A DNA stretch of 45,677 nucleotides from NCBI GenBank assembly GCA_023818655.1, contig JAMWCI010000001.1, positions 1 through 45,677 on the forward strand, read 5' to 3'. The translations under genes were made by a program, and so were the position numbers. This DNA is from Candidatus Omnitrophota bacterium. GTDB taxonomy: Bacteria > Omnitrophota > Gorgyraeia > Gygaellales > Profunditerraquicolaceae. Below are positions 21,727 through 38,045 of the stretch, one piece after another (the first letter of the stretch is position 1; every line of letters starts with the position of its first letter). Below the pieces are notes generated by a model. The model searched no databases. It was not told the origin of the DNA and saw nothing but the letters and a program-made list of their open reading frames with translations.

Positions 21727-22733
21727 TTGAATTTCACCTGCCTAAATATGGAAAAAAGCCGAGTAAAAGGCACATACCACTTGGAAAGCTGGCCCAGCTG
21801 GCCTGATAATTTCATCTTCCCTTGGGTAACCGCCACAAAAGAATCCAGTTTACCTAAAAAGACCTGCTCCCAGATATCTCTCGGTGCGGAAATTACAAAA
21901 GGGGCATTGGCATCAAAATCTAAGCACACAATCTTTCCTTTTTCAAAATTGAATTTATAAGCAGAATCAGAGCCGTCCATCTTTATGGCCAGTTGCACGG
22001 TCAAATCCAGCTCTTTTCCTTTTTGGGCGATAAACTCATCCTTGTTGACCAAATCCACAATTGCCTGGATATGCTCCCGGGAAAACATCGGATATGCTGC
22101 TTCTTGTCTGGTGAGTTCTTCTTTCAGGCCGTTATCTAAATCGTCAAAGGCCTCTTTATTAAAGAGTCTGGCAATAGCAGCGCTTTTGACTGCCTCCTCC
22201 AACGCCTCAATCAACGTCAGGGCATCTTTAAAATTCTGTCCTATAACTACTACACCATGGTTTTTCAGCACTACCAGATTATTTGACTTTAAGGCATTAA
22301 TAACCGGCTGGGGCTGTGTGACAGTAGGAGTTTCCTGTTTTACAGACGGAACTTCGCCTAAATAAAGTTTAGTTTCAAAGGTCAACGCCTTTAACGAATC
22401 GTAAACGCTAAAATACCCGTTTATCAAAGGAGGATGACAATGCACTACTACCTGAACAGGAAAATTTTTGTAAACTAAGCTATGCAGCGGAAGTTCTGAA
22501 CTGGGATTTTTAGAATCGAGGGACTCTCCGCTGGCTAAACTAACTCTGACAATATCTTCGGGCGTCAAATCGCCCAGAGAGGTTCCGGTAGCGGTAATAA
22601 GGATATTGTATTCGTCAATTCTGCAGCTGAGATTGCCTGAATTAGCTACTGCCAGGCCTGCTTCATACAGCCGCCTGCCTACTCTAATAATCTCTTCCTT
22701 CAATCTTCCTCCGGATTCCGGGATACGATACAA
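21723..22733 (-). CDS. Class II aldolase/adducin-fold enzyme fused to a C-terminal SCP2 (sterol-carrier-like) domain
   Basis: N-terminal residues 1 to about 200 show the aldolase-II pattern (NSGNLSCRIDE..ILITATGTSLGDLTPEDIV .. SSELPLHSLVY .. VVVHCHPP .. VLKNHGVVVIG). C-terminal residues about 235-336 show an SCP2 pattern (..FVISAPRDIWEQVFLGKLDSFVAVTQGKMKLSGQLGQLSKW). The start is uncertain: the longest ORF begins at a TTG and there is no nearby ATG. Confidence 0.7.
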   Translation of the reverse strand: MYRIPESGGRLKEEIIRVGRRLYEAGLAVANSGNLSCRIDEYNILITATGTSLGDLTPEDIVRVSLASGESLDSKNPSSELPLHSLVYKNFPVQVVVHCHPPLINGYFSVYDSLKALTFETKLYLGEVPSVKQETPTVTQPQPVINALKSNNLVVLKNHGVVVIGQNFKDALTLIEALEEAVKSAAIARLFNKEAFDDLDNGLKEELTRQEAAYPMFSREHIQAIVDLVNKDEFIAQKGKELDLTVQLAIKMDGSDSAYKFNFEKGKIVCLDFDANAPFVISAPRDIWEQVFLGKLDSFVAVTQGKMKLSGQLGQLSKWYVPFTRLFSIFRQVKFK

Positions 22734-22736
22734 TTT

Positions 22737-23708
22737 TCAATTTTTGCTTTGGTTTAAAAGGTGAACAACATCCCCGATATTCAAATAAATATGCTTGGTG
22801 ATTAAATTGCTGGGTGTTATGTCAAACGCCGGATAATATCCCTTGACTCCCTTTGGCGCAATAGAGATGCCGCAAAATTCCAATAATTCCCCCTCTGGAC
22901 GGATTTCAAGTTGAATATCCTCTCCTGTTTTAGCAAGAGAGACTGGAGAACAAAGCACATAAAAAGGAATCTTAAAATAATCTGCCATAATGGCAATCTG
23001 GTATGTTCCTATCTTATTGGCGATATCGCCGTTTTGGGCTAAGTTATCCGCGCCAACTATGACTTTGGAAATTTTTCCTTCCTTCATCACCTCTGCTACC
23101 ATATTATCGGCGATAACAGTGACATTACACCCTGCCTTTTTTAGTTCCCATGCAGTAAGACGGCTGCCCTGCAAATAAGGACGGGTCTCCGTAACAAAAA
23201 AACTTACGGATTTATTTTGCTGGCGGCATAATCTGGCAATTAAAGGCATAAGCCCGCTGACATTGCAATGGGTAAGAATTGTATCCTTATCGTCTATTAA
23301 TCCACTACATTCCTTTGCCTGCTCTATGCGTTTTGCCTTTAATCCTTCCAAAAAATTCAAGATGCCATTATCCAGCCGGACACCTTGCTTATGTAAACCA
23401 ATGGCAAGGTCAGTTAAAAACTTAAAAGATAGCGTTGGCCGAACGCTATTGAAGGCATCGGCAACATTAGACAGAATCTGAGCAATATTTTTTTTGTTCT
23501 GGTTTCGCCTGTATTCCAATAAAAAGGAATACATCACCAGCAATACCTGACCTATAGCGCGGGTCTTCATCTGTTTAATTGCCGATACCGCCTGTTTGTA
23601 ATTTCCTACTTTGATATATTTTAATTTATGCGGCAGCAATGTCTCATCTAAGATATAAATAAATTTACCTTTCAATTTCACCGGCCAAAACAAAGGAGAA
23701 TATTTCAT
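22737..23708 (-). CDS. eIF-2B alpha/beta/delta-family sugar-phosphate isomerase (MtnA-like; methylthioribose-1-P / 5-deoxyribose-1-P isomerase candidate)
   Basis: It has ILDETLLP near the N-terminus, ILTHCNVSGL (the catalytic Cys context of MtnA), and VIVGADNLAQNGDIANKIGTYQIA (the catalytic Asp context). Confidence 0.7.
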   Translation of the reverse strand: MKYSPLFWPVKLKGKFIYILDETLLPHKLKYIKVGNYKQAVSAIKQMKTRAIGQVLLVMYSFLLEYRRNQNKKNIAQILSNVADAFNSVRPTLSFKFLTDLAIGLHKQGVRLDNGILNFLEGLKAKRIEQAKECSGLIDDKDTILTHCNVSGLMPLIARLCRQQNKSVSFFVTETRPYLQGSRLTAWELKKAGCNVTVIADNMVAEVMKEGKISKVIVGADNLAQNGDIANKIGTYQIAIMADYFKIPFYVLCSPVSLAKTGEDIQLEIRPEGELLEFCGISIAPKGVKGYYPAFDITPSNLITKHIYLNIGDVVHLLNQSKN

Positions 23709-24457
23709 ATCCTTCCTTCTAACTTCTTTACCGTTGCCAGTCCGATATTAATCAGATTTGTCTCTGCCATATAATAAAGCGGATTCATAAAACCCATCTC
23801 TCCGGTTACGACATTGTCGCTGACTGCAAGGATTGAACCTGCTTTTACCTTATGCAGCTGCGCAATAGTCAGGAGCGCTGAAGAAACCATATCCACGGCA
23901 ATTGCGCCTTCTCTACGCCTGGCCTCCACAATCTGACGCGTCTCCCGCAATAACGCATCCGTAGTCCAGACAATCCCTCGATGGATATTTACGCCTAAGT
24001 CTTTGGCAACTTCATACAAGGTGTCGGAGATTGTTTTGTCAGCCACAGTTTGAAAATTCTCATCTACATAGTAAGGCGTTACCCCATCTCCTCGGATAAC
24101 CTTATCCACAATCACCAGATCGCCTATCTTGATATTATCATCCAAAGCCCCGCAGGTTCCGATGCGGATAATATTTTGTATGCCGGCATTGCACATCACC
24201 TCGGTGGTAATAGAGGTATCTGTGGAGAATCTACCGCCATTAATGGCGGTAATTCTTATCCCCTCATAGACGCCGGTATACATAGTGTATTCCATAAAAG
24301 AAAAATTGCGCACTGGATTCTCTATTTTTTTTACCAAGACTTCCAAACGGTCCTTTGGTCCGGGCACTATGGCATATTTGCCCACATCCTGAGGCCTCAA
24401 CTGCACCATATTGGTTAAATCTTTTCCGGTTAAATGAACATCCTTCTGCATCTGCAT
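23705..24457 (-). CDS. Nucleoside phosphorylase, NP-I (DeoD/Udp-like) family
   Basis: 250 aa with the pattern AIVPGPKDR .. YTGVYEGIRITAINGGRFSTDTSITTEVMCNAGIQNIIRIGTCGAL .. GDLVIVDK, typical of hexameric purine/uridine phosphorylases. Substrate cannot be read from the sequence. Confidence 0.7.
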   Translation of the reverse strand: MQMQKDVHLTGKDLTNMVQLRPQDVGKYAIVPGPKDRLEVLVKKIENPVRNFSFMEYTMYTGVYEGIRITAINGGRFSTDTSITTEVMCNAGIQNIIRIGTCGALDDNIKIGDLVIVDKVIRGDGVTPYYVDENFQTVADKTISDTLYEVAKDLGVNIHRGIVWTTDALLRETRQIVEARRREGAIAVDMVSSALLTIAQLHKVKAGSILAVSDNVVTGEMGFMNPLYYMAETNLINIGLATVKKLEGRI

Positions 24458-24474: not shown

Positions 24475-25128
24475 TTATCCGGTATAACCTATGGGAATAA
24501 TATATACGGGCTCTTCCTCTTTTCCTAGAGAAAGAATCTTTTTTACCTGACTGTTATCAAATGCTCCGATAGGGACAGACCCCAATCCCAGAGCTGTTGC
24601 TTCCAGATGGAGATTCTGGGCTACATGCCCTACTTCTATATCCACATATTGTCTCCCGCGCTCTCCATACTTAGATGTGACACGCCGATAGACCGCGCAA
24701 ACCACGACATTAACCGGCGCCTGAACTATTGCGCCCTGTCCAAAAGCAGAGTTAGCCAGAGGGATTCTCAAGTCAGAGGAACTTAATTGTTCTATGCGGT
24801 GTCCTTCCGGAAGATAATGATACAGGCCGTCTTTAGTCAATAAATAAATTTCTATCGGGTATAATGCGCCGGCAGAAGGCGCGCTACGTAGACTATGATT
24901 ACCTTTTTTAGCGGTTATGCCCTGAGCTGCCCAGAGAAGTTGACTGATTTGCTCAAAGGTTAGGTCTCTGGCTATAAACCTGCGTTGAGAACGTCTCTTT
25001 AGAATTGCCTCTTCCAGAGAAATCTTGCCTTTTGTTGCCGGATCAGGCAACTGAATTATCTCTCCAGCCATAACTCCTCCCGGATTCAATAAAAACACGC
25101 AAACCAATATCGCTGTGTATCCTCTCAT
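24475..25128 (-). CDS. SagB-type / nitroreductase-family flavoprotein with an N-terminal signal peptide or anchor
   Basis: It has RRSQRRF, LLWAAQGIT, LRSAPSAGALYPIEIYL, VGHVAQNLHLEATALGLG and a C-terminal PIGY. The N-terminal hydrophobic segment is TAILVCVFLLNPGGVMA. I call the ATG at 25128, because the track start at 25131 is a TTG. Confidence 0.7.
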   Translation of the reverse strand: MRGYTAILVCVFLLNPGGVMAGEIIQLPDPATKGKISLEEAILKRRSQRRFIARDLTFEQISQLLWAAQGITAKKGNHSLRSAPSAGALYPIEIYLLTKDGLYHYLPEGHRIEQLSSSDLRIPLANSAFGQGAIVQAPVNVVVCAVYRRVTSKYGERGRQYVDIEVGHVAQNLHLEATALGLGSVPIGAFDNSQVKKILSLGKEEEPVYIIPIGYTG

Positions 25129-25175
25129 CAACGTACTTCTGCCTATCCTGCGTTCATTCCAAACAGTATTTAGTT

Positions 25176-26105
25176 TTATGGCGACGATGACAAAGAAAAG
25201 GCTAACAGGCTTTCTAAATTCCTGCCTAAAATATTATTTTTATCTTCCTCTGAAATCGCTAATTCTCTGACTGCTCCGATGGAGTTGCTAATATCTTTTT
25301 TAGCTGGCCAGTCGCTACCCCAGAGTATATGCCTTGGCCCAAATAATTCAAGCGCCAAAAGAAAATTTGCCTTTGTCTTATCTCCGCCGGTATCCACATA
25401 GATATTCTTTAAATAATCCGAGGGGTTACCTTTTAAATCCTTTACGAAATTAATGCTGCGCAGCATAGAATAGGTGGCGTCAAATCTGTGCTGCAAAAAA
25501 GGTATTACCCCGGCAAAATGGGCAAAGATGAATTTAAGGTCATAATAATCGCGCAGGATATCGCTCATCAGGAGCTTGCCCGCGCTTAAGGTGATATCAA
25601 AAACATACCCAATCACCGGGGTTAAAAGCGGATCCTGCAACCGCTCTGCTCCTATAGGGTTTACAATCTGGGCATGTACAAAGATGGGAATCTTCTTCTG
25701 ACGGGCAATATTGTATACAGGAAGAAAACGCTGGTCATCCAGATATATTCCGTTGTAACTTGAGGCTAGGGAAATCGCCTTAAATCCCAACTCTTCAGTC
25801 GCTCTCTTTAACTCCTCGCACATATCTTTCGGATTATCTATAGGCAGCATTGCCGCACCGATGAATCGGTGAGGATAGCGCTTAATGATTTTGGCGACAT
25901 TATCGTTGTAGATACAAGCTGTCCGGGAAACGCTACCTATTTTCAGGTGCGCATCTGAAGTAGGATAGGAAAGCACAGCCTTGCTGATGCCTGCCTCATC
26001 CATAGCCTTAAGCTGGGCTTCGATATCGCCCCAGCCCTTGTGAAAGAAATGGGCGTTGGTTATAATCTCTTCGGGTAACCAGTGGGCATGGCTATCTATT
26101 ATCAT
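25176..26105 (-). CDS. Amidohydrolase-2 family metal-dependent hydrolase/decarboxylase (ACMSD-like)
   Basis: It begins MIIDSHAHWLPEE, the metal-binding HxH at the start. The C-terminal LWGSDWP is typical of the amidohydrolase-2 fold. Confidence 0.8.
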   Translation of the reverse strand: MIIDSHAHWLPEEIITNAHFFHKGWGDIEAQLKAMDEAGISKAVLSYPTSDAHLKIGSVSRTACIYNDNVAKIIKRYPHRFIGAAMLPIDNPKDMCEELKRATEELGFKAISLASSYNGIYLDDQRFLPVYNIARQKKIPIFVHAQIVNPIGAERLQDPLLTPVIGYVFDITLSAGKLLMSDILRDYYDLKFIFAHFAGVIPFLQHRFDATYSMLRSINFVKDLKGNPSDYLKNIYVDTGGDKTKANFLLALELFGPRHILWGSDWPAKKDISNSIGAVRELAISEEDKNNILGRNLESLLAFSLSSSP

Positions 26106-26500
26106 CTGCGCTCCGTACTCTTTAGAATGCGTTCAATCATCTCCATCTCATAGAGAAGTTTTATCTCCTTGAGGGCATCTTTGCCCAGCTCCTTGAGGAT
26201 GGCCTTTTCCACCGCCTTAAGTTTCAAATGAAGAAAATTATACTCTGGATTAATTTCATTATTATTCAAAAACTTCTGCTCCTTTGCCTCCTTTTCCTTG
26301 TTGCATATATAATTATGGAAATCACTAATAAACTTAACCAGTTTCCTGGAGCTATCCATACGGATAATCTCCCTAAGCAAGAATCTGTCGATTTCTAACT
26401 GGGTAAATTTGCGCTCAATTTTATCCAGCTCTTCTTTTGTGGTTTTGTAAAGCCAAACCAGATACCGCTTTTTCAGGTTCTTCAGGTCAAGTTTCTCCAT
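26102..26500 (-). CDS. Hypothetical helical/coiled-coil protein
   Basis: 132-aa K/E-rich ORF with no recognisable motif. It is ATGA-coupled to the amidohydrolase gene, which supports real coding. Confidence 0.45.
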   Translation of the reverse strand: MEKLDLKNLKKRYLVWLYKTTKEELDKIERKFTQLEIDRFLLREIIRMDSSRKLVKFISDFHNYICNKEKEAKEQKFLNNNEINPEYNFLHLKLKAVEKAILKELGKDALKEIKLLYEMEMIERILKSTERR

Positions 26501-26510
26501 TTTATCTCTG

Positions 26511-27119
26511 CTATTTCTTTATCAACTCCACATCGTCAAAATATAAGGTGCCTTTTGCCACAGGCAGCGGTTCGAACTGGTAGCTTTTAATGGGGAAATC
26601 CAGAATCCCGTTTTTGTCTGCTGATTCCGGCTGCCAGTCAGTGCGGGCAAAGAAATGGTCAAAAATACAGATAACCTGCTTCCACCCCTTAACGTCATCG
26701 CTGGTGATAAAACGCCACATCTCTCCGCCATTATCTTTCACGTCAAAAGCTATATCTTCCTTTGAGCCTGCGCCGTACATCCAGAATGAAATCCCCTTAA
26801 AATCGCTCCACTTGATATCATTAGCTTTAACTAACCAAGCGGCATTTTTTGCATCTAGTTCCTCTCCTCTTGCTATATACATATACCCTCCGGAAACAGC
26901 GTCAAAGGCCGCCCGCAAAGACTGCTTTCCTGAATGCACTTGTTCTGTTGCGGCGCTTACTTGCAAGGATGAACCATTACCAGCGCCAAAGTCTACTGTG
27001 CCGTCTGGCCCGCCGGAGATTATCCCCTCAAAGTTATCAATCACTAACCCAGCCTCTTCAGAAAACGCTACCCCTGCCACAAATAAAACCGCTATCACCA
27101 TAAAAACTATCCTTTTCAT
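26511..27119 (-). CDS. Exported beta-sandwich protein (CBM/CIA30-like carbohydrate-binding-type domain)
   Basis: It has a signal peptide (VFMVIAVLFVAGVAFS). The pattern VIDNFEG ... GTLYFDDVELIKK resembles CBM11/CIA30-type modules. This assignment is tentative. Confidence 0.45.
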   Translation of the reverse strand: MKRIVFMVIAVLFVAGVAFSEEAGLVIDNFEGIISGGPDGTVDFGAGNGSSLQVSAATEQVHSGKQSLRAAFDAVSGGYMYIARGEELDAKNAAWLVKANDIKWSDFKGISFWMYGAGSKEDIAFDVKDNGGEMWRFITSDDVKGWKQVICIFDHFFARTDWQPESADKNGILDFPIKSYQFEPLPVAKGTLYFDDVELIKK

Positions 27120-27143: not shown

Positions 27144-27920
27144 CTATTTATCAGGGTGCTGTTGTTGAAATGGTATAACCGGCTTTGTCCAAGGCGTCTG
27201 CTGGTTTATAATGGAAATCTCCAAGGGGCAAACATTTGCCGGCACAGTCAGGGCAAATTTTACCGCATTCTCTATCGCCTCGGTAGTCATTAAGCGCGAT
27301 GTATCTGTGGTAACTTCTTTGAGCTTGCCGGTCAGGTCCGTATCCGTAACCCCGGGAAGAAGCGAGGTAATCTTAATCCCGTAGTCGCGAATCTCCCAAA
27401 AAAGCCCTTTTAAAAATGCGCGCAAGCCTACCTTTAAAGAGCTATACACCAGAAAATTTCTGGGCAAGGGGTCGCAAAGGGTTGAGCCGGAAACAATACT
27501 GATAATCGCCCCGGATTTATTTTTTATCATATCGTTAATCACCAGCCGGATGAGCCGGACATAGCCCATATAGTTAGTATGCGCCAGTTTCTCAATATCA
27601 TCAATGGGTTGCTCTGGAAAAGGATATTGACTGGAGACCCCGGCGTTGTTAATCAGAATATCTATCCTGCCAAACCGCTCCTTGGTTTTATTAACCAGGT
27701 TTTGCAGGTCTTCAAGTTTTGCCACATCGCAAACCACTGGCAAGACTTCTACCTTATATTTTTTAGCTATCTCTTCAGCTGCTTCTTTAAGCGGGCCTTC
27801 AGCCCTGGCTGCAATAACCACATTTATCCCAAGGCTGGCCACAGTAGAAGCCAAGGCCTTGCCTATGCCCCGGCTTGCTCCGGTAACAATGGCGGTTTTT
27901 CCTTTAAGTTCGCTAATCAT
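27144..27920 (-). CDS. Short-chain dehydrogenase/reductase (candidate polyketide ketoreductase)
   Basis: It has TGASRGIGKA for cofactor binding, NNAG, and the catalytic YSSLK (Y-x-x-x-K). There is a strong SD (GAGGAGG). Confidence 0.85.
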   Translation of the reverse strand: MISELKGKTAIVTGASRGIGKALASTVASLGINVVIAARAEGPLKEAAEEIAKKYKVEVLPVVCDVAKLEDLQNLVNKTKERFGRIDILINNAGVSSQYPFPEQPIDDIEKLAHTNYMGYVRLIRLVINDMIKNKSGAIISIVSGSTLCDPLPRNFLVYSSLKVGLRAFLKGLFWEIRDYGIKITSLLPGVTDTDLTGKLKEVTTDTSRLMTTEAIENAVKFALTVPANVCPLEISIINQQTPWTKPVIPFQQQHPDK

Positions 27921-27942: not shown

Positions 27943-29070
27943 CTACGTCCGATTAACCAACAGCAATCTCTTCTCCAATAACAATAAAATGGTCAGACAC
28001 CCTCCGCAAAAGACAAAATTACTAACCGGGCTTTTCTGCAAAAGCATCCCTCCTAAACCGGCTCCTATGCCTCCGGAGATAAAACGGATGCTGCTGTTTA
28101 AGCTGGCGGCTTCGTAAAGAAAATTTTTCGGCAGATCAGTAAGAATGGTAGAAAGCCCAACGTGATTCATTGTCCAGCCCCAGCCCCAGATAATCATCAG
28201 TAGCGCCAATAAAAAAATCGGCATCTTAATCACCAGAGAAAACGCGCTTAAAATCATCAGGATAATCCCCAGTTTGATTGTTTTAAGCCTGCCCAATGAA
28301 TCTGCCAGCCTCCCTCCTAGCACTTCTCCAAAAATTCCGCTTACGCTGGTTAAGGTAATCAACATACTGATTAAGAATTGCCCCAGCCCCAACTGAAAAG
28401 AAAAATATACCGCCAACCACTGCTGCAGGCCATGATAGATTAGACTGATAAAAAATATATAGGTAAATACAGACAAAAATCTCCTGTCTTGAAAAGCATT
28501 AAGGTAATTCGTCCTAAAAATTCCTTCCTCACTAGTAAGACAGGGAAGATAAAAATACATCGCCAAACATAGACAAATACCTGCTACTGCCGGAATAATA
28601 AAAATCACCCGCCAGGGCAATACCCCGCTTAAGAAAAGCCCGCAAAGGGAGGCGATAAAAGTAGCGCCAAAGAAGAGCCCTATGTGTTTGCCTCTTTTAT
28701 CAGCCTCTATCTGCTGACCAATAAGGATAATCCCCACGGGAATAACCGATGCGCCGAATATCCCCGTCAAAAACCTTGCCCAGAATAGCTGATAGATATT
28801 TGCGGATAATCCCGCTAAAAGATTAGCAAGAGAAAATAAACCCAGACAGGTCATTTCTATCTTCTTGGCGTCAAAGAGCCGGACCAGCGGTCCATAGATA
28901 AGCGCGGCAAGACCGTAAGGAATCATATACAGCCAGATAATTCTTCCGGCAAAAAATTGAGAAACGAGAAAATCCTTGGCAATAGAAGGCACCAACGCGG
29001 CAGAAGCTGCCACATTAAAAGAAAGAATCGCTGCCTCTAAACACAGGATAAGAAAAACGTTTTTTTTCAT
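27943..29070 (-). CDS. Major facilitator superfamily transporter
   Basis: About 12 predicted TM helices with typical MFS loop composition. I call the ATG at 29070 (MKKNVFLILCLE...). The track start at 29112 is a TTG lying inside the upstream gene. Confidence 0.75.
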   Translation of the reverse strand: MKKNVFLILCLEAAILSFNVAASAALVPSIAKDFLVSQFFAGRIIWLYMIPYGLAALIYGPLVRLFDAKKIEMTCLGLFSLANLLAGLSANIYQLFWARFLTGIFGASVIPVGIILIGQQIEADKRGKHIGLFFGATFIASLCGLFLSGVLPWRVIFIIPAVAGICLCLAMYFYLPCLTSEEGIFRTNYLNAFQDRRFLSVFTYIFFISLIYHGLQQWLAVYFSFQLGLGQFLISMLITLTSVSGIFGEVLGGRLADSLGRLKTIKLGIILMILSAFSLVIKMPIFLLALLMIIWGWGWTMNHVGLSTILTDLPKNFLYEAASLNSSIRFISGGIGAGLGGMLLQKSPVSNFVFCGGCLTILLLLEKRLLLVNRT

Positions 29071-29086
29071 AGTAAGGACTGTTTGC

Positions 29087-29530
29087 CTATTGCCTGGCGG
29101 CTTCCCTTTCAATAATCTGCTTAAAAATCTTCAGATTTGTCTGAGAACCTTCGTTAATGAAGCCCTCCACCTGCTGGTCATTGAATTTTGCTTTCTCATC
29201 CATCTCAAAATGCTGAATCCAGCTCATCTCTATGCCTTCTGGTTTGGGAGTATAAAGCCAGATGATCTTCATATACTTAAAAGGAAATTTTGGCTCTTGC
29301 CTTTCGGCATAAGCAAAGTATTTGTCTTTAAACAAAAGTCGCCAGGATACCCAGGATTTACCTTCTTCATCAGTCAGGCGGAAGGTGAGCTTATTGTCTT
29401 TTCTCTCCAAGACCTCCGCCTTTTGGTATTCCCCGCCAAAAAGTTCTGTCCAGCGAGAGATATCGTTTGAGATATCAAAAACCAAATCGTATGGTGCGTT
29501 GATGATAATGGAATTGCAGGTATGCCCCAT
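29087..29530 (-). CDS. SRPBCC/START-fold polyketide aromatase-cyclase, mono-domain TcmN-like
   Basis: 147 aa. The pattern HTCNSIIINAPYDLVFDISNDISRWTELF..EYQKAEVLER....LTFRLT .. PFKYMKIIWLY .. GIEMSWIQHFEMD matches, as I remember it, the TcmN/WhiE-type ARO/CYC pattern. There is a strong SD (AAGGAGGGAG). Confidence 0.7.
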   Translation of the reverse strand: MGHTCNSIIINAPYDLVFDISNDISRWTELFGGEYQKAEVLERKDNKLTFRLTDEEGKSWVSWRLLFKDKYFAYAERQEPKFPFKYMKIIWLYTPKPEGIEMSWIQHFEMDEKAKFNDQQVEGFINEGSQTNLKIFKQIIEREAARQ

Positions 29531-29567: not shown

Positions 29568-30359
29568 TTAAATTACCGCTACAACCCTTGCCCAGGCAGC
29601 GCCGGTACATTTAATCCTTATCGGAAAACAGATTACCTTAAAGCCAAAATCCGGCAGTTTCTCCAGATTAGCTAAACGCTCAATGTGGATAAACTCCCTT
29701 TTTCTGCCGTAAAAATGCGCCGGATACAATGGTTTTCTCTGTTCTAAAAACTCTCTGAGCATAAATTTATATGGCCGGTCAATCCCCATAGTATCCACGC
29801 CAAAGATTTTTACCCCCCTATCCAGAAGATAATCTATCGCTGAAATATCTACTCCTGGATAATCGGAAAAATATCTTGGAGTGCCATAAAATTTATCCGC
29901 GCCGGTCTGTAAGAGAACTACGTCTTTTTCTTTAATGGTGTAATTTATCTTTTTAAGCCCGCTTTCAATATCCGCCGCGCTAATTACCTCTGCCGGCCTC
30001 TTATGCCTGAAATCCAACCTGACCCCGTCAGAGTAACACCACTCCAAAGGAATCTCATCAGCGCTCTTAGAGGGTCGGCCCTCAGACTTTGAACCGTAGT
30101 GGAAAGAGTAATCCAGGTGCGTGCCGATATGCACCGGAGAATGCACTACTTCCAGAGAGAGAAATTCTCCTTCCGGCAGGTCCTCTTTTTTTAAGATGCG
30201 CAAACCCAGCAGATACTTTATCCTGCCAAGGAGGGTCTTAACCATAATAACGCGGTTGAATTTCTCTACGCCTGCCTTATGCGAAATCCGCTCAATATCC
30301 ACCTTATGTATCTCAAAGGCACTCTCGTCAATGGGCAGGCTTAAATCAATTATCTTCAT
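29568..30359 (-). CDS. Cyclase-family protein (kynurenine-formamidase-like Zn hydrolase/cyclase fold)
   Basis: It has the H-x-G-T-H-x-D-x-x-x-H motif (HSPVHIGTHLDYSFHYG). The size is right at 263 aa. It is ATGA-coupled to the ACP gene. Confidence 0.7.
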   Translation of the reverse strand: MKIIDLSLPIDESAFEIHKVDIERISHKAGVEKFNRVIMVKTLLGRIKYLLGLRILKKEDLPEGEFLSLEVVHSPVHIGTHLDYSFHYGSKSEGRPSKSADEIPLEWCYSDGVRLDFRHKRPAEVISAADIESGLKKINYTIKEKDVVLLQTGADKFYGTPRYFSDYPGVDISAIDYLLDRGVKIFGVDTMGIDRPYKFMLREFLEQRKPLYPAHFYGRKREFIHIERLANLEKLPDFGFKVICFPIRIKCTGAAWARVVAVI

Positions 30360-30592
30360 TTTGCAATCTTAGACTGAATTACCTTATCAATATCATTAAT
30401 GGTAGAAAACTTGGTAACCTCCTTTGCGCCCAAGGATATGCCGAAGACCTTTCCCAAAGCAATCACTGCCTCTACCATCTCAGTAGAATCCACACCTATT
30501 GAATCCTGCAAGGAGACATCATCCTTCAACTCTTCCGGCTTGACCTTAAGCAGATTAATCAATATTTCTTTTATCTTCGCTTTCGTATCCAT
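30356..30592 (-). CDS. Acyl carrier protein
   Basis: 78-aa acidic protein with the phosphopantetheine attachment motif GVDSTEMVE (Ser36). It has an SD (AGGAGAGGG). Confidence 0.85.
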   Translation of the reverse strand: MDTKAKIKEILINLLKVKPEELKDDVSLQDSIGVDSTEMVEAVIALGKVFGISLGAKEVTKFSTINDIDKVIQSKIAK

Positions 30593-30607: not shown

Positions 30608-32068
30608 TTAAATCTGAATCTCACCTTTGGTTGCTGCGGCTTCCCATTTTCCAATGCCTGACATAACATCCTGAAAACAAAGTTTTGCCAAAGGGTCAAA
30701 GTTGCTCTCCATAATCCTGTTTATGCGTCCGGGCTTGGAATAAAATTCGCGCATACACCAAGCGCCCAAACGGCCTAACTCTTCAATCGTTAAATGGTCT
30801 GTGGGTATGACTGGATGCAAAAAATCCCAGGTGCTAAAATCTACTTTCTTGGGGTCAATCCAGTTTTTCTTCAGGGCTATCCTCCACATGGGGGAATTCG
30901 GGGCAGGGGTTACATAACCAATCCATAACACATCCGGGTCAACCTCATCGGCAAACTCAAACCTCTGCTTGATAATTGCCTCGGTATCGTAATCAAACCC
31001 AATCATAATATCCGCCACAATCGCAATATCATTCCTGCGCAAAATCTCAATGGTTTTTTTAATCTGTTCGATGGTGGTGCCTTTGGCAATCCGTTTCAGC
31101 TCCTCCGGAGTTGTAACCTCAATACCAAACACGCCCATAAATAAACCCGTTTCTTTCATTAGCGGCAGGATATGTTCACAATTTACCCAGTCCACTGCCC
31201 GACCCAAAGAAACCCACTTAATGGGGATATTCTTTTCTTTCTTTAATTCGCAAAATCTTTTTACCCGCTGCGGGTCAACATTAAAATTGTCGTCTTGAAT
31301 AACCACTACCTTTACGCCATACTTTTTATGAAGTAGTTCCATCTCTTCAATTACCCTCTCCGGAGACTTTGCTCGCCATTTCAAGAAGTCCGAAGGAGAA
31401 CGCGGGTCAAACTGGTCCCATTCATAGCAGAATGTGCAGGCAGATGGACAACCCCGGGAAGTAATCATATCCACGAAGGGCTTCCAGTGGGTATGCCCCA
31501 CGTATTTATCCATCGGGAACAGGTCATACGCCGGAAGGGGCAGCTTATCCAAATCACTCATCAACGGCTTATGCGGACCCATAACAATCTCTCCGTCAAT
31601 GCGCGAGGTGACTCCGCCGATATTTCTTAAGTCTTTCTTTTTATCAATCGCCTCAATTAAATCCGCAAAAGATTCTTCTTCTCCCATCACTACAAAATCT
31701 ACTGCCGGATTTTCCTCCAAGGTCTGTGTCGGCATAGCAGAGTACCATAAACCTCCCAGGATTATTTTTACCTTGGGAAGCGCCTGTTTAATCCTTACGC
31801 CTGCCTCCTTAAAATGGCGCAAGACGCCGTAGCCGGCATAACCGTGTATCTGTTCACCCATGACCACAATATCAGGGTTTTTGCTCTTGACCTGTTCGAT
31901 TAATTGCTCCATGGGAATCTCTAAGGCCCTTCCGTCAATAACCCCTACGTCAGCATATCCTCGCTGGCGTATATACGCTGCCCAATGGGCATAAAGCTGG
32001 TTCGGAGACTTATGGATTCCATGCGTTGCCCAGGCGCCGACTTTCGGCATAACAAATAAGATTTTCAT
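30608..32068 (-). CDS. B12-binding-domain radical SAM enzyme (class B)
   Basis: The N-terminal Rossmann-like B12-binding domain pattern runs MKILFVMP ... DIVVMGEQIH ... IILGG. It is followed by ITSRGCPSACTFCY (CxxxCxxC; Cys212/216/219 in ORF-track numbering). I call the ATG at 32068, which lies 8 nt after a GGAGG. The track start at 32083 is an alternative. Confidence 0.85.
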   Translation of the reverse strand: MKILFVMPKVGAWATHGIHKSPNQLYAHWAAYIRQRGYADVGVIDGRALEIPMEQLIEQVKSKNPDIVVMGEQIHGYAGYGVLRHFKEAGVRIKQALPKVKIILGGLWYSAMPTQTLEENPAVDFVVMGEEESFADLIEAIDKKKDLRNIGGVTSRIDGEIVMGPHKPLMSDLDKLPLPAYDLFPMDKYVGHTHWKPFVDMITSRGCPSACTFCYEWDQFDPRSPSDFLKWRAKSPERVIEEMELLHKKYGVKVVVIQDDNFNVDPQRVKRFCELKKEKNIPIKWVSLGRAVDWVNCEHILPLMKETGLFMGVFGIEVTTPEELKRIAKGTTIEQIKKTIEILRRNDIAIVADIMIGFDYDTEAIIKQRFEFADEVDPDVLWIGYVTPAPNSPMWRIALKKNWIDPKKVDFSTWDFLHPVIPTDHLTIEELGRLGAWCMREFYSKPGRINRIMESNFDPLAKLCFQDVMSGIGKWEAAATKGEIQI

Positions 32069-32088
32069 TCTCAAGCCCTCCATTTCTT

Positions 32089-32133: not shown

Positions 32134-33363
32134 TTATGGTTTTTCTACGACCAAGACCGCATTAATCCCTCCCCTGCCGCGGGAGATGGCCAAGGCTTTC
32201 TTAATCTTGTGCTCTTGCGCTTGTTTTCTGACGTAATTTAATGAATTCTGCGCAGGTTCATCAAGATTTATGGTAGGTGGAATTAAATTATGCTCCATAG
32301 CCAAAAGGGTAATTATCAAATCTATGGCCCCTGAAGCGCCTAAGAGATTTCCGAACATAGACTTTGGACAGCTGACAGGTATCTCTTTAAGCCTATCTCC
32401 AAAAACAATCCTTAAAGATTCTATCTCTGAGTTATCCCAGATATCCACAGCCAGACCATCAAGGCTGATAAAATCTATCTCCTCGGCTTCTGTCTTGGCA
32501 TCAGCAAGCGCCGTCTTAATTGCCCGGGCTAACTCTTGGCCGTCTGCGGCCGGATTAATCCTGTCTGCGCCGTCACAAGTTGTGCCGTAACCGGAAACTA
32601 AACCCAAGATATTTCCTCCCCGCGCAAAAGCGCGTTCAACACTCTCCATCACAACAATCCCTGCGCCTTCTGCGATAACAAAACCATTGCGTCTCTTATC
32701 AAATGGCCGGTAGGCCTCCTGCGGATGGGCGTTATCTGTGGAGAGCCCTCCGTAAGTGTTGCAGCATAACAGCGCATAGGGAGTAACCGGCGCCTCCATA
32801 CCGCCGGCTAAAATCAGATTTAATTTATCTTTGGCTAAAATCTTGCGCGCATAACCAATAGCCATTGTTGAACTTGCCCGGTCAGCGACTACGGTTTTGG
32901 AAAATCCCTTTATCCCGTAATAAATAGAAACCTGCCCTTGGGGGGCAGCAGGAAACCAGGCAGAAGCCATATAAGGAGAAACTCCTTCCCTGCCCTCAAT
33001 ATACATATCGCGCAATTCTGTCTCGGCATACAGCCAGCCGCCAATGGCATTGCCTAAAAATATCCCTACAAGATTAGGATTTTCTTTTTTAATATCTATG
33101 CCAGCATCCTGCAAGGCAAACTCTGAGGCAATCAAGGCCATATGCGAGAAGGCGTCAATCTTTTTTAAGAGCCGCGGCGAGATAGTGGAGTATTTTTCCA
33201 ACTCGTCAATCTGACCGGCAATATGCGAAGGGTATTTTGAGGCATCAAAACGGGTAATTTTCTTGACAAAGGAACGACCGCTTTTGATGTTTGCCCAGAA
33301 TTGACGTTTGCCAATCCCTGATGGACTAACTACGCCAATACCGCTAATGGCAATCTTATCCAT
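32134..33363 (-). CDS. Ketosynthase beta / chain-length-factor-like subunit, catalytically inactive
   Basis: It has the thiolase-fold KS pattern throughout. Column-by-column alignment to the adjacent KS-alpha puts Arg162 (codon CGG at 32880-32878) at the catalytic Cys position. Asp302 and Asn339 fall at the two catalytic His positions. Its start overlaps the KS-alpha stop by 8 nt. Confidence 0.8.
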   Translation of the reverse strand: MDKIAISGIGVVSPSGIGKRQFWANIKSGRSFVKKITRFDASKYPSHIAGQIDELEKYSTISPRLLKKIDAFSHMALIASEFALQDAGIDIKKENPNLVGIFLGNAIGGWLYAETELRDMYIEGREGVSPYMASAWFPAAPQGQVSIYYGIKGFSKTVVADRASSTMAIGYARKILAKDKLNLILAGGMEAPVTPYALLCCNTYGGLSTDNAHPQEAYRPFDKRRNGFVIAEGAGIVVMESVERAFARGGNILGLVSGYGTTCDGADRINPAADGQELARAIKTALADAKTEAEEIDFISLDGLAVDIWDNSEIESLRIVFGDRLKEIPVSCPKSMFGNLLGASGAIDLIITLLAMEHNLIPPTINLDEPAQNSLNYVRKQAQEHKIKKALAISRGRGGINAVLVVEKP

Positions 33364-34618
33364 TAAACCTCCGTAAAATTAAAGAAGAGTGAATCCCGGA
33401 GAAGCCGCTTGAAGTCTTCATCAGACAATTTATCCGCTTCTGGCGGGCTACATTAGGTATATAATCCAAATCGCACTGAGGGTCTTTCTCCTCCTGATTT
33501 ATTGTAGGAGGAAGAAAATTCTTTTCAAACATCATCGCATTGACGGTTAACTCCACGGCATTAGCTGCTGCCAGAGGATGACCAATCATAGATTTTAAGG
33601 AACTAATCGGCACCTTATAGGCATAATCGCCAAAAACTGTTTTGTAGGCAGCGGTCTCAAAGATATCGTTCATCCGGGTAGAAGAGCCATGCGCGCCGAT
33701 GTAATCAATCTCCTGTGGTTTAATCCCGGCGTCTTTTAAAGCCAAAACAATACAATTAGCCATAGCCGTGCCATCCGCCGGTAAATCCGTCATATGAAAT
33801 GCGTTGCAGCTCGTACCAAAACCGACCACCTCGCAATATATATGCGCATTTCTTTTTAAGGCGTGGTTTAATTCTTCTAAAATCAAAATTCCAGCCCCCT
33901 CCCCCAAGACAAAACCGTCGCGCCTATTATCAAATGGCCGCGAGGCTTTCTCAGGTGTATCATTGCGAGTAGATAAGACGCTGATCACGTCGAATGCGCC
34001 AAAGGTAATTGGCGTAATCGGAGCTTCTGCCGCCCCGCAAATCATAATCTCCTGTTCTCCGTCTTGAATGGTTTCTAAGGCAAAACCCACAGAGTCGGTT
34101 CCGGCGGTGCAACCGGTAGATAAAGTATTGCAGATTCCTTTTAGACCATATTTAGACGAGATTTCAATAGAGGGGGTATTAAACATCGCCGCATCATAAA
34201 GGTCAGGCCTGACCTTGGCAGGGTCAATAGGTTCTTTTCCGTCATTGGTCACTAAGGCAAACTCCTCTTCCATATATTTTGTGCCGCAGATGGCATTGGC
34301 TAAACAAACCCCTATCCGCCTAGGGTCTTCTTTGCTAAAATCCAAGCCGCTATCTTTAATCGCCATTTCTCCGGCAACTAATCCGAACTGCACATAGCGG
34401 TCCATCCGCATTACTTCCTGGTGAGTGAGACCCCATTGAAAAGGGTCAAAATCGCGCACCTCTGCGGCAATCTTGGTCTGAAAGATAGAGACATCAAATC
34501 CCTCTACTCGTTTTACTGCCGATACTCCGCCAACCATTGCCTTCCAGCAATTTTCTTTGCCAATACCATTAGGGGAAATCACCCCAATACCCGTAATCAC
34601 CACCCTGCGTTTATTCAT
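33356..34618 (-). CDS. Type II polyketide ketosynthase alpha subunit
   Basis: The catalytic triad is intact: Cys170 in LSTGCTAGTDSVG (codon TGC at 34111-34109), His310 in GAHGSSTRMND, and His347 in KSMIGHPLAA. The STGCT.G.D.VG and HGS.T..ND contexts are of the KS-alpha type rather than the FabF type. Confidence 0.85.
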   Translation of the reverse strand: MNKRRVVITGIGVISPNGIGKENCWKAMVGGVSAVKRVEGFDVSIFQTKIAAEVRDFDPFQWGLTHQEVMRMDRYVQFGLVAGEMAIKDSGLDFSKEDPRRIGVCLANAICGTKYMEEEFALVTNDGKEPIDPAKVRPDLYDAAMFNTPSIEISSKYGLKGICNTLSTGCTAGTDSVGFALETIQDGEQEIMICGAAEAPITPITFGAFDVISVLSTRNDTPEKASRPFDNRRDGFVLGEGAGILILEELNHALKRNAHIYCEVVGFGTSCNAFHMTDLPADGTAMANCIVLALKDAGIKPQEIDYIGAHGSSTRMNDIFETAAYKTVFGDYAYKVPISSLKSMIGHPLAAANAVELTVNAMMFEKNFLPPTINQEEKDPQCDLDYIPNVARQKRINCLMKTSSGFSGIHSSLILRRFNG

Positions 34619-36216
34619 TCTTCTATCCGCGTTAGTTTAAAGACTACCTTTCCGCCATCTGGACACGTTACTGTATCAATAGAATTTTGATTAGGCATAA
34701 AGAAAAATTTTGCGCCGAAATTCAAGGCAAAGAGAGCGGGAAAGGCGCAGTGGAAAGCTGCTCCGCAAAACCCCGGGATGCACTTTAAACCCTCGGTCCC
34801 CCATTTATCCCCGACTTTGTAGCCGAAGTGGCAAGTTCCGTCAGACCTCACTACCTCAATAAGCATTTTCTTCGGCTTAGGCCCTTTGTAATTTGGGTCT
34901 TTAGGGCTAAACTGCGCTTTGCCTTTATTGTCCAGAACCTCCACCTTAAACTCTAATTTTCCTCCGTCAGGACAGGTAACTTTTAAGGTCTGCTGGTTTT
35001 CCATAAAGGGAAACTTCGCCCCGAAACTTAAGGCGTAGGCTGCCGGAAACACTGCATGCGCAAGACCCAGACAGAAATATTTGGGCGGATGAGTAAAATC
35101 TTCTAAGATCAGCTCATCTCCGACTTTATATCCATGATAACAATGCCCTCCGACATTAACTACGCTGAGTTTAAGGCGCGGAAAAGGAGAATCAATCACC
35201 TTATTCTCAACAATCTCCGCCAGTCCATTAATTTCCCGAAAAAACTCTTCCCTGCTGAAAAACTTCCTATTCTTTTCAACCTCATGCACCATCTCCACCA
35301 TTTTTTTATTGAGCGGCGCATCCAATCCGTATTTCTCAGCTAACCGCACAAACTCTCCGTTAAGATAATCTATCTCCGAAGGTCTGCCTCTTTTTATGCT
35401 TTGCAATACCGAACCGTAGAGCGGCTCTTTACTCAATGTAGTCATGATGCCGGAGTATATCCCTGCTGACTGCACAGCAGGCAAAGAAACCAGTTTAGTC
35501 AGACGCTCAAGGGGAAAATCCGGCAAAGAAACCAGTTTAATTCCTCCTTTGTTAACAATCTCCCAACCCTCTTTCCATATCTGCATAGCCACGCAGGATA
35601 CATTAATATCGCTAAAGGCCTTCTGGATGCTAACACCTAAGATGGCAGGGATACAGTTATTGGCATTTATAAAGAGCTTAAGGTATTTCATCCCCTGGAT
35701 ATCGTCGGCAAGCCTAACATTAAAAGCCACGCTTAACGTTGCGAATAACTGCTTGAGCGTATCGTCGTTCTTCCCAAATGCGCTTCCGATAATCCACGGC
35801 CCTTCAAAGTTATGCGCAATCCTGCCTGGTTCAAGGCGGGTGGCGCCGAACATTACAATACTGGAGACGATATTTTCCTTTGGCGCATATTTAGCCACCA
35901 GTTCTTCGCTGGCTACACCGTTCTGGATAGTCAGGATTATCGCATCTTTAATATATGCCTGATTACTCTTTAACGCCTCTTCTATATCTTGGGTTTTGGT
36001 AGCTAGAATAATAAGGTCTGGTTTATAAGAGAGCTTTTCCGAGATGGGTATCTTTATATTATGCTGGCCCTTTGCTCCGGAAATATGCAGGCCGTTTTCT
36101 TCCACCGCCTTTACGCTGTCAGCATGAGCAACTAAAGATACATCTTGACCTTTTAGCTTTAAATAACCGGCTACCAAACCTCCGATTGCTCCTGCGCCAA
36201 TTACCGTAATCTTCAT
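34615..36216 (-). CDS. Ketopantoate-reductase (ApbA/PanE)-like NAD(P) oxidoreductase fused to two tandem small Cys/His-rich domains (TIGR04076-like)
   Basis: Residues 1 to about 310 begin MKITVIGAGAIGG (Rossmann) and show the KPR pattern (LATKTQD .. QNG .. EIDYLNGEFVRLAEKYGLDAP). Residues about 347-427 and 451-531 are two copies of one roughly 80-aa module (C.HGYKVGD ... FC..A.H..FPA..AL.FGAKF.FM.NQ....VTCPDGGK..FK). Confidence 0.75.
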   Translation of the reverse strand: MKITVIGAGAIGGLVAGYLKLKGQDVSLVAHADSVKAVEENGLHISGAKGQHNIKIPISEKLSYKPDLIILATKTQDIEEALKSNQAYIKDAIILTIQNGVASEELVAKYAPKENIVSSIVMFGATRLEPGRIAHNFEGPWIIGSAFGKNDDTLKQLFATLSVAFNVRLADDIQGMKYLKLFINANNCIPAILGVSIQKAFSDINVSCVAMQIWKEGWEIVNKGGIKLVSLPDFPLERLTKLVSLPAVQSAGIYSGIMTTLSKEPLYGSVLQSIKRGRPSEIDYLNGEFVRLAEKYGLDAPLNKKMVEMVHEVEKNRKFFSREEFFREINGLAEIVENKVIDSPFPRLKLSVVNVGGHCYHGYKVGDELILEDFTHPPKYFCLGLAHAVFPAAYALSFGAKFPFMENQQTLKVTCPDGGKLEFKVEVLDNKGKAQFSPKDPNYKGPKPKKMLIEVVRSDGTCHFGYKVGDKWGTEGLKCIPGFCGAAFHCAFPALFALNFGAKFFFMPNQNSIDTVTCPDGGKVVFKLTRIEE

Positions 36217-36491
36217 CTGTGTATTTCCTGTTTTGTCTTGGGAAAACCGTATTTTTTGTAGTCAAAGCCGGTCTGCTCCAATAGACGCACCATCATGCTG
36301 TAAAAAGGCGAAGGCACATCCGCAAAAAACGCGCCTATTACATCCTCCTCTTCAATTTTCGGCGAGCCCCTTTTTAAAGCCAGTTCTTCTGCCTTCTTAA
36401 TCACTATCTCCTCTGTTATGCGACGGTGAAAGAGGGGGATTTTGGAAATAAAGATTTTGAATTTATCCTGCACCGTTCTTTCCCATTCCAT
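36213..36491 (-). CDS. Small PCP-reductase-like (BchB/ChlB C-terminal-like) domain protein
   Basis: 92 aa. The pattern WERTVQDKFKIFISKIPLFHRRITEEIVIKKAEELALKRG resembles the W..eA...l.kiP.FvR......e..A...G pattern of that domain. It is the first gene after the promoter and is ATGA-coupled to the next gene. This assignment is tentative. Confidence 0.5.
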   Translation of the reverse strand: MEWERTVQDKFKIFISKIPLFHRRITEEIVIKKAEELALKRGSPKIEEEDVIGAFFADVPSPFYSMMVRLLEQTGFDYKKYGFPKTKQEIHR

Positions 36492-36588: not shown

Positions 36589-37107
36589 TTAGATTACGTT
36601 GATAAAGCGGGTTAAAAAATTAATCTCTGAATCAACCATCCGCAGGTTATGTTCTAGTATATAAATAAGACTCCTTGGGCTCTTGGTCTTTTTTAACTCT
36701 TCTATATTCTCTCTTAAATCCCGGGATAATTTTCTTAAAACCATAGTCCTTGCGCGTAACCTGCGTCTGGCTATCTGTGGCTTAATATAATTAAGAAAAT
36801 AGAGGCTTAAATCCAGGCTAAACTGCGGACGTTTAAAGTCCAGAAAACTTTTACTTAAAAGCTCCTCAAATCTCTCCTGCCCTCTCGCGGTCAGATAATA
36901 TACAAAACGCTCTGGCCGCTTCCCCTTTTTTCTGATTCGTTTGGCAATAAGACCCCTGCGTTCAAGAATCCTTAGGGGATAGTAAATGGATTTTAAATCC
37001 ACTCCCGCAAAGATAGAGAGTATCTCTTTTATCGTTTTCTTGATTTCATAGCCGTGCTTCTGGCTTTCCTTTAACAAACCCAAGAATAATAATTCGTATT
37101 CAATCAT
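36589..37107 (-). CDS. PadR-family transcriptional regulator
   Basis: It has a winged-helix pattern ([23 protein letters not shown] .. [14 protein letters not shown]) and a helical C-terminal extension. It is ATGA-coupled to accA. Confidence 0.8.
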
Positions 37108-38045
37108 GCAAACACCCCAATAGCACGGAATTTTTTGTAGCGTGCCTTAAGCAGGGTCTCAGTCTCCAGTTTTTTTAATTCGCTGAGATTTTTCAGCAGG
37201 GAATCTTTTAAATTCTTAGCCATCATCTGCGGGTCGCGGTGTGCCCCGCCTAATGGCTCCGGTATTATCTCATCGATAATACCCATCCCCAACAGGTCCT
37301 GTGCGGTTAGCTTTAATACCTGGGCTGCCTCAGGAGCCCTTGAGCCATCCTTCCACAATATCGCTGCGCATCCTTCGGGTGAGATGACGGAATAATAGGC
37401 ATTTTCCAGTACGCAGACCCTGTCGGCAACACCTATCCCCAACGCACCTCCTGAACCGCCTTCGCCTATAACTGTAGCCACCATCGGCACTGCTATATTC
37501 ATCATCTCGCGCAGATTCTCGGCTATGGCCTGCGACTGACCACGCTCTTCCGCCCCTATTCCGGGATATGCGCCCGGCGTATCAATAAATAACAATACCG
37601 GCAGGCCTGACTGCTCAGCCAGACGCATAATCCTTAGGGCCTTACGGTAACCCTCGGGATGCGTGCAGCCAAAATTGCGTTTAAGGTTTTCCTTTGTGTC
37701 TCTTCCTTTCTGGTGTCCTATTACCGCTACCTTCTGACCTTCAAATTTTGCCAGGCCAGCTATTAATGCCTTGTCGTCGAAAAAAGCCCTGTCTCCGTGC
37801 AACTCCAAGAAATCAGTCATAAGCATATTGATGTAATCAAGGGTATAAGGACGCTGGGGATGGCGGGCAATCTGTACCTTCTGCCATGCCGTAAGGTTGG
37901 CATAGGTTTCTTTCTTTAGGGCTTCCAGTTTATCTTCCAGACGTTTAACCTCAGCAGAGATATTGATCTTCTTCTCGGAGAAATCCTTAAGCTCCTTGAT
38001 TTTCTTCTCCAGCTCTGCTATAGGTTTTTCAAATTCAAGGCTCAT
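37104..38045 (-). CDS. accA: Acetyl-CoA carboxylase carboxyltransferase alpha subunit
   Basis: 313 aa with [28 protein letters not shown] and [12 protein letters not shown]. Confidence 0.9.

Follow-up and report, generated by a model that had tools for sequence, protein, structure and literature searches.

A ketopantoate reductase-family protein fused to two TIGR04076 modules in a conserved ketosynthase operon of Candidatus Omnitrophota

In anammox bacteria, the gene cluster proposed for ladderane synthesis ('cluster I') encodes the acyl carrier protein (ACP) amxACP, amxFabZ, a heterodimer of amxFabF2 and amxFabF-mut, a homologue of phytoene dehydrogenase and a B12 radical SAM enzyme (bioRxiv 10.64898/2026.05.19.726425). 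Clusters of the antiSMASH 'ladderane' type have been described in metagenome-assembled genomes (MAGs) of Omnitrophota (PMC9902471) and, in a catalogue of type II polyketide synthase (PKS) clusters, Candidatus Omnitrophica is listed among the phyla bearing a ketosynthase (KS) with a chain length factor (CLF), none of them characterised. Here, we analysed a 45,677-nucleotide stretch from a Candidatus Omnitrophota bacterium (assembly GCA_023818655.1, contig JAMWCI010000001.1, positions 1 to 45,677 of the forward strand), called the window below. It contains an operon with a KS, a CLF-like protein, an ACP and a B12-binding radical SAM enzyme (B12-rSAM), in which the gene directly upstream of the KS gene encodes a reductase of the ketopantoate reductase (KPR) family fused to two copies of a module of the TIGR04076 family (T76; the two-repeat unit is written T76x2). 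This gene had been singled out in an earlier reading of the letters and open reading frames (ORFs) of the window, referred to here as the sequence-only reading.

The KPR family, the TIGR04076 family and clusters of FabF, FabF-mut and B12-rSAM are each already known by name, and the fused architecture itself is already in public data, where it stands unremarked. What is new is the invariant pairing of KPR and T76x2 in a conserved Omnitrophota operon and the fusion that links them, together with the family-wide signature of three cysteines in T76 and its lack of a recognisable fold. The merging of KPR and T76x2 into one gene is a strong clue that both proteins work together. On balance, and with modest confidence, we infer that two subunits of one pathway-specific oxidoreductase have been fused, T76x2 being its probable metal or Fe-S partner.

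The fused gene and its split relatives

The ORF lies on the minus strand at 34615-36216, just as the sequence-only reading had described it, and encodes 533 amino acids. Its KPR (ApbA/PanE-family) NAD(P)H reductase domain (residues 1-317; 35266-36216) is followed by a linker of 29 residues (318-346; 35179-35265) that, according to the junction alignment, holds the fusion junction, and then by the two T76 repeats on the same strand. Repeat 1 covers residues 347-429 (34930-35178), with its cysteines in GHC, FC and TCPDGG, and repeat 2 covers residues about 450-533 (34618-34869), with its cysteines in GTC, FC and TCPDGG. The assignment of the N-terminal half to the KPR-family reductases, first made by eye, was borne out by Pfam ApbA (PF02558; residues 3-145, E 1.2e-35, 122.8 bits for a cut-off of 22.2), Pfam ApbA_C (PF08546; residues 172-314, E 1.7e-18, 67.6 bits for a cut-off of 22.7) and NCBIfam TIGR00745 (198.3 bits for a cut-off of 141.35), all above their cut-offs. 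TIGR04076, the family to which the sequence-only reading had likened the C-terminal part, matched the fused protein at 95.6 bits in two stretches (NCBIfam; cut-off 33), which places this part in the family. The two repeats align with each other at 46% identity over 84 aa (E 5e-23), in agreement with the two copies of about 80 aa and the coordinates first proposed for them, and the three Cys and the Gly of VGD (G-x-C, a Cys before the helix, C-P-D) are found in both.

The C-terminal 203 aa were searched against 5.8 billion proteins, which gave 765 matches, and the best 120 of these 765 were examined. They are 73-82% identical to the query, and nearly all of them are stand-alone Candidatus Omnitrophota proteins of 192-207 aa annotated as 'uncharacterized repeat protein (TIGR04076 family)'; among these best 120, only P0002 also bears an ApbA_C domain. 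The gene arrangement was then compared across 80 species-representative genomes, nearly all from Candidatus Omnitrophota, of which 77 could be judged and three have contigs that end too early. A separate KPR gene lies directly upstream of a two-repeat T76 gene of about 197 aa in 76 of the 77 judgeable representatives, and the fused form is present in one (L003). Two adjacent separate genes, and not the fusion, are thus the usual arrangement. On the 409-kb Omnitrophota contig L001, a KPR gene of 334 aa ends at 7999 and a two-repeat gene of 199 aa starts at 8001, in a different frame. In the split loci, the distance from the KPR stop to the T76x2 ATG is usually between -4 and +5 nt, +1 being the commonest (27 loci) and the -4 ATGA overlap the next (13 loci). 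The junction alignment shows a 5-nt indel at about 35212-35216 between the window and the split form, and a small indel at the stop/start junction would have merged the KPR and T76x2 genes.

The sequence-only reading knew of no other TIGR04076 module fused to a reductase; such fusions do exist beyond the window, in L003, L002 and P0126. The fused protein of L003 has 534 aa and is 77% identical to that of the window across 531 aa without a gap. The linker is kept between the two (GLVEIIEGKVIDSPFPRLKL against GLAEIVENKVIDSPFPRLKL), and its pattern ...G-L-x-E-I-x-E-x-KVIDSPFPRLKL is conserved in both L003 and L002. In L002, which comes from another metagenome, the junction is identical in arrangement and in-frame. 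The representative of a 50% cluster, P0126, is a further fused form, with ApbA, ApbA_C and T76. Compared with the KPR half of the window, those of the other fused forms show 77-81% identity, and all split forms 65% at most. Because the KPR halves of the fused forms are mutual closest relatives, these sequences fit a single, inherited fusion event in one sub-lineage.

One source of doubt lies in the reads. In the only public run that contains this sequence, a hot-spring metagenome at 2-4x depth, the contigs do not cover positions 35197-35234, with the indel site inside this gap; they match the window perfectly at 34967-35196 and 35235-35615. Together with the split genes that are the rule in relatives, this gap is what speaks for an assembly or sequencing error, i.e. 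a spurious indel joining two frames, which we nevertheless hold to be extremely improbable. An artefact is strongly argued against by the independent assemblies L002 and L003, which share the in-frame junction and the linker. The fused arrangement is also shared by P0126, and the KPR halves of the fused forms stand apart from those of the split forms by the identities given above. The window protein is therefore a genuine, rare and lineage-specific fusion. Its rarity is also seen with a junction-spanning query, which returned no fused protein in its best 120 matches; as the known fused fragment P0002 was missed as well, this search is evidence of rarity and not a census.

The KPR half carries the Rossmann motif VIGAGAIGG. 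Among 69 operon orthologues, G7xG9AIG12, Q98-N99-G100, K177/K180, N184/N187, S269/Q272 and E281 are invariant. Its closest solved relative is the KPR of Thermococcus kodakarensis (PDB 5hws/5ayv; E 3e-31), with which the catalytic positions align. Both proteins share the ApbA plus ApbA_C fold signature, the GxGxxG motif and the Asn, Lys and Glu catalytic positions, whereas the window protein has about 20 extra residues around 232-262. Given that none of the 69 orthologues departs from the Rossmann motif or from the Asn, Lys, Glu and Ser positions, the KPR half is very probably active as an NAD(P)H-dependent carbonyl reductase.

Its score with TIGR00745, a subfamily-level model (198 for a cut-off of 141 bits), and its KPR-like catalytic residues would also suit a housekeeping PanE, making pantoate for CoA and for the phosphopantetheine arm of ACP, with the T76 repeats as unrelated passengers. 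We regard this as very unlikely, given that every equivalog-level PanE model of NCBIfam scores far below its cut-off (e.g. 157.9 for 500 and 147.8 for 371), that family scans found no further pantothenate genes among the genes of the window, and that the gene has a fixed operon position with translational coupling on both sides. A true PanE (2-dehydropantoate 2-reductase) was rejected on these scores. As the equivalog PanE models fail and the window has no other pantothenate genes, a pathway-specific substrate appears more likely for the KPR half than 2-dehydropantoate. The literature held nothing connecting KPR with type II PKS systems.

The TIGR04076 module and its contexts

In the Omnitrophota T76 proteins (n=24), the three Cys of each repeat are kept, as is a His five residues past the second Cys. 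A family-wide alignment was built from 51 diverse T76 members that are 29-56% identical to repeat 2 of the window. Only four of its columns never vary, those of the three Cys and of the Gly in 'VGD'; the Pro-Asp of 'CPD' follows with a conservation of at least 90%, whereas no conservation is seen for the His. The conserved Cys and His residues had been taken by the sequence-only reading as a hint of a metal site: for the Cys this stands, three of them being invariant family-wide, but the His is conserved in the Omnitrophota proteins only. T76x2 is better conserved than KPR, with a median identity of 75% as compared to 60%. With the window query, only 203 clusters of the family can be detected at 50% clustering; these are mostly singles of about 90 aa or doubles of about 200 aa, and a few have three to four copies.

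The AlphaFold model of the T76 module, of about 85 aa, has a beta-beta-alpha-beta-beta topology. The single-repeat model is confident, with a pLDDT of 88.8 and a pTM of 0.80, and the two-repeat model only moderately so, with a pLDDT of 73.7. Foldseek against the Protein Data Bank (PDB) gave no significant match for either the single-domain or the two-repeat model. The best single-domain matches are XdhC/CoxI chaperones, with TM-scores of 0.50-0.56 and a root-mean-square deviation of 3.5-4.5 A over about 87 columns; the match is weak (E about 0.7, probability 0.44-0.60, 9-13% identity). The structures concerned are PDB 2we7, 2we8 and 3on5, the last of which also came up, below significance, with the two-repeat model. 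XdhC proteins likewise pair such a small domain with a Rossmann-like domain. There is, however, no profile-level similarity between T76 and XdhC/CoxI, and to our knowledge the XdhC family does not have a Cys3 signature. A sequence search of the PDB with the T76 part found nothing, and a profile search found only ASH2, at an insignificant level (E at least 0.16). In the same way, a Pfam scan of the 51 members at E up to 1 revealed no recurrent family, and the literature contains no functional statement on TIGR04076, which two papers name without giving it any tested function.

The gene contexts of T76 outside the Omnitrophota operon were also inspected. In one locus, a gene combining T76 with a flavin-reductase domain precedes a ferredoxin gene. 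Elsewhere, there is a T76x2-DUF362-4Fe4S-ferredoxin fusion, followed by a B12-rSAM gene, and a multi-repeat T76 protein is encoded between a DUF362-ferredoxin gene and a B12-rSAM gene. The rSAM genes of these two DUF362-ferredoxin loci (L089 and L090) encode class-B relatives of the window rSAM, with 26-30% identity. These two loci (L089, 18-3414; L090, 1561-6520) lie on unrelated metagenome contigs, and the T76, DUF362-ferredoxin and B12-rSAM genes found together there may make up a separate conserved three-part system.

In 80 metagenome loci of an unrelated single-copy T76 subfamily, no rSAM, KS or KPR gene is found nearby. A coupling of T76 to B12-rSAM throughout the family was rejected because none of these 80 loci has such a gene in its vicinity. 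The commonest neighbours of the single-copy subfamily are CCG/Fer4_8 Fe-S proteins (10/107), AMP-binding ligases (6-7) and D-2-hydroxyacid dehydrogenases (4), and the named source organisms of T76 proteins belong to anaerobe-type lineages. The contexts of T76 thus share redox and Fe-S chemistry in anaerobe-type lineages, without one fixed partner. In a Dehalococcoidales MAG (L088, 3337-4267), a single-copy T76 gene follows a gene for a MobA-like nucleotidyltransferase and genes for carbon monoxide dehydrogenase/acetyl-CoA synthase (CODH/ACS). Alongside the weak match to the XdhC-like fold, this one case may point to T76 taking part in the handling of cofactors.

According to an alternative that we consider unlikely, T76x2 would be a small Fe-S or cofactor-handling protein that mainly serves the B12-rSAM, by supplying electrons or by helping to load its cluster or cobalamin, and the fusion to KPR would be an accident of adjacency, mechanistically unconnected with the reductase. 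It draws on T76 being fused or adjacent to DUF362-Fer4 and lying beside class-B rSAM genes in two unrelated contexts, on the presence of a B12-rSAM both in the window operon and in the more distant locus L085, and on the best, though weak, fold matches being cofactor-insertion chaperones. The XdhC match is, however, insignificant and has no profile-level support, the 80 single-copy loci have no rSAM nearby, and T76x2 always lies between KPR and KS and not beside the rSAM. Moreover, the fused form has persisted to 77% identity between the window and L003 with a conserved linker; such persistence through substantial divergence suggests that the fused state is tolerated or useful.

The ketosynthase operon and the role proposed for the pair

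All genes of the operon are on the minus strand. The fusion gene has ATGA overlaps at both ends. Upstream, the overlap leads from the gene of a 92-aa DUF2621/PCP_red-like protein (36213-36491) into the fusion and, downstream, the stop of the fusion overlaps the start of the gene of a FabF-like KS (33356-34618). The position directly before the KS gene with an ATGA overlap, from which stoichiometric co-production had been proposed at first sight, was thus confirmed, and the fusion gene is translationally coupled to that of the KS. The KS has an intact Cys-His-His triad, with the motifs TGC, AHG and IGH. The second FabF-like protein (32134-33363), a CLF-like or 'FabF-mut'-like partner without the catalytic triad, has Arg in place of the Cys, and Asp and Asn in place of the two His. 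Then come a B12-rSAM of class B, BchE/HpnJ-like (30608-32083), which has a 49% identical orthologue in L085, and a discrete ACP of 78 aa with a PP-binding match (30356-30592). An active KS, a homologue without the active-site Cys and a discrete ACP mark the set as a KS-CLF system of the type II PKS or type II fatty acid synthase (FAS-II)-like kind. The operon continues with a protein of the PF04199 'Cyclase' family (29568-30359), an SRPBCC polyketide cyclase/dehydrase-like protein (29087-29530), a transporter of the major facilitator superfamily (MFS; 27943-29112) and a FabG-like ketoreductase of the short-chain dehydrogenase/reductase (SDR) family (27144-27920). A regulator identified by family matches as PadR-family (36589-37107) is encoded directly upstream of the operon.

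Where contigs reach, the operon order is kept for the KS in 74 of 74 related loci, the CLF-like gene in 64/64, the ACP in 55/55, the cyclase in 52/52 and the small ORF in 70/70. The rSAM is in its usual position in 52 of the 56 related loci that are long enough. The median identity of these proteins across related loci is 66-85%, and most operon proteins have a median of 75-85% across species representatives. In the more distant locus L085, whose two-repeat protein is 50% identical, the KPR/T76x2 pair is found with the same gene set, the rSAM being shifted to the operon end. A link of TIGR04076 to PKS genes had struck the sequence-only reading as something not seen before. The adjacency of T76x2 and KS holds, but not as a peculiarity of the window, since the link is a conserved operon, shared by no fewer than 74 species-level genomes and also seen in two or more lineages that are further away.

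Our favoured explanation, the fusion of two subunits of one oxidoreductase, can be put as follows. Each T76 module would bind a metal centre, with Zn as the alternative to a more likely Fe-S cluster, and the two repeats would form a pseudo-dimer. The Cys-Pro motif, the pattern of three Cys plus Asp, the distribution in anaerobes and the redox fusion partners speak for the cluster. T76x2 would be an obligate partner subunit of the KPR reductase, and both would act on the starter unit or on an ACP-bound product or intermediate of the adjacent KS/CLF system. In this assembly, T76x2 would either be an electron relay for the Fe-S and B12 radical SAM machinery, in one direction or the other, or dock the reductase onto the KS-CLF/ACP. 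The fusion would only make covalent an association that is non-covalent elsewhere.

Several observations weigh against this explanation. Enzymes of the KPR family transfer hydride directly and are flavin-free, which leaves a one-electron Fe-S partner without an obvious mechanistic role, and for the three Cys a structural Zn site or a thiol-based role is also conceivable. Among the T76 proteins, the two-repeat protein of L087 is found in an unrelated context, and the association with B12-rSAM does not extend through the family, no such gene lying near the 80 single-copy loci. Furthermore, in L083, whose T76x2 is 45% identical, a phosphopantetheinyl transferase (PPTase) gene and small ORFs are followed by T76x2, KS and CLF, with no KPR directly upstream. 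T76x2 may therefore work for the KS-CLF/rSAM machinery no less than for the reductase, since L083 keeps it before KS-CLF without an adjacent KPR.

The same locus lends weight to an alternative in which T76x2 is a Zn-stabilised structural adaptor, whose repeats bind the subunits of the KS/CLF heterodimer, or the ACP, and so recruit tailoring enzymes such as KPR. T76x2 is always directly upstream of and translationally coupled to KS-CLF, even in L083; its two repeats would suit a heterodimer whose subunits are homologous to each other, and it is very highly conserved. Yet T76 proteins with a single copy or with three to four copies occur without a KS nearby, and the fusion partners of T76 elsewhere are redox modules and not thiolase-fold enzymes, so that we think such an adaptor quite unlikely.

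Beyond the fusion of two oxidoreductase subunits, a wider reading of the whole family can be offered, as a tentative possibility on the doubtful side. TIGR04076 would be an unrecognised small metallo-domain of new fold, with a Cys3(Asp)-ligated Fe-S or similar centre, and would act as a redox or cofactor partner that connects NAD(P)H- and flavin-reductases to B12-rSAM and KS/CLF systems in anaerobes; the operon product would be a modified lipid or polyketide that needs it.

Other features of the operon and its surroundings were recorded. In L085, the B12-rSAM orthologue (14649-16376) has a C-terminal extension with 41% identity (E 6e-23) to the 92-aa DUF2621/PCP_red-like protein of the window, which is also 42% identical to the product of a stand-alone DUF2621 gene in L085 (6234-6494). 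The rSAM extension is a second fusion clue in the operon, tying the small protein to the rSAM enzyme. At the operon end of L085, the rSAM gene is followed by that of a tungsten-type aldehyde:ferredoxin oxidoreductase. L061, L074, L075 and L080 lack a B12-rSAM gene behind the CLF-like gene, where it is usually found; their KPRs are the most divergent ones, with 45-48% identity.

Downstream in the window (18758-24457, minus strand), a nucleoside phosphorylase, an MtnA-like isomerase, a class II aldolase-SCP2 fusion, an aldehyde dehydrogenase and an AMP-binding ligase are encoded. This gene run resembles a route for salvage of 5'-deoxyadenosine and methylthioadenosine (MTA), the 'DHAP shunt', and could dispose of the radical SAM by-product. 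In L085, genes for a phosphorylase and an AMP-binding ligase lie directly upstream of the operon. Between the SDR gene and the salvage genes of the window (24475-27119, minus strand) are genes for a CBM11-like protein, a 132-aa ORF without family match, an Amidohydro_2 protein and a SagB-type nitroreductase; the last three have no counterpart in the related loci and may be additions specific to the window lineage. Just upstream of the PadR gene, the ORF at 37104-38045 (minus strand), which holds the same position in 29 related loci, is one that we take, from reading it by eye, to be the carboxyltransferase alpha subunit of acetyl-CoA carboxylase. If so, it could be a source of malonyl units for the operon.

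Comparison with known systems

The fusion physically ties TIGR04076, a family with no Pfam model, solved structure or significant fold match, to a specific reductase, and the operon survey ties KPR and T76x2 to a highly conserved KS/CLF, ACP and B12-rSAM pathway of an uncultivated phylum, the Omnitrophota. A testable functional link is thereby gained for both an orphan domain family and an orphan operon. This bears on the clusters of FabF/FabF-mut and B12-rSAM outside anammox bacteria, which genome-mining tools now label as 'ladderane'.

With anammox cluster I, the window operon shares an active FabF-like KS together with a FabF homologue lacking the triad, a dedicated ACP and a B12-binding rSAM. 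The window rSAM scored 76.7 bits with TIGR04072, the model of the ladderane-type rSAM, for a cut-off of 360, and membership in that family was rejected on this score; its best model is BchE-like, at 218 bits for a cut-off of 481. Family scans found no homologue of FabZ or phytoene dehydrogenase among the operon genes at 27.1-37.1 kb. Where cluster I has these, the window operon instead has KPR, T76x2, the PF04199 cyclase, the SRPBCC protein, the MFS transporter and the SDR.

The minimal aromatic type II PKS of the actinorhodin type consists of KS, CLF, ACP, a ketoreductase (KR), an aromatase (ARO) and a cyclase (CYC). The window operon is alike in having a KS, a CLF-like protein, an ACP, an SDR ketoreductase, an SRPBCC protein and a PF04199 cyclase, and the strong PDB matches of the second KS include the actinorhodin CLF (1tqy_B). 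Both KS proteins of the window are closest to FabF. CLFs of the aromatic type have Gln at the position of the active-site Cys, whereas the CLF-like protein of the window has Arg there and so lacks the Gln that marks them. Because Arg and not Gln replaces the Cys, and because the whole triad is lost, the second FabF-like protein is nearer in kind to the anammox 'FabF-mut'. We know of no type II PKS with a KPR/T76 pair.

As to the two halves of the fused protein, the stand-alone TIGR04076 forms closest to it are the two-repeat Omnitrophota proteins of about 197 aa, with 75-82% identity, from which the two-repeat part of the window differs by its fusion to the upstream KPR. What sets the KPR of the window apart from ketopantoate reductases is its place among the genes of a KS/CLF operon and its covalent link to two T76 modules.

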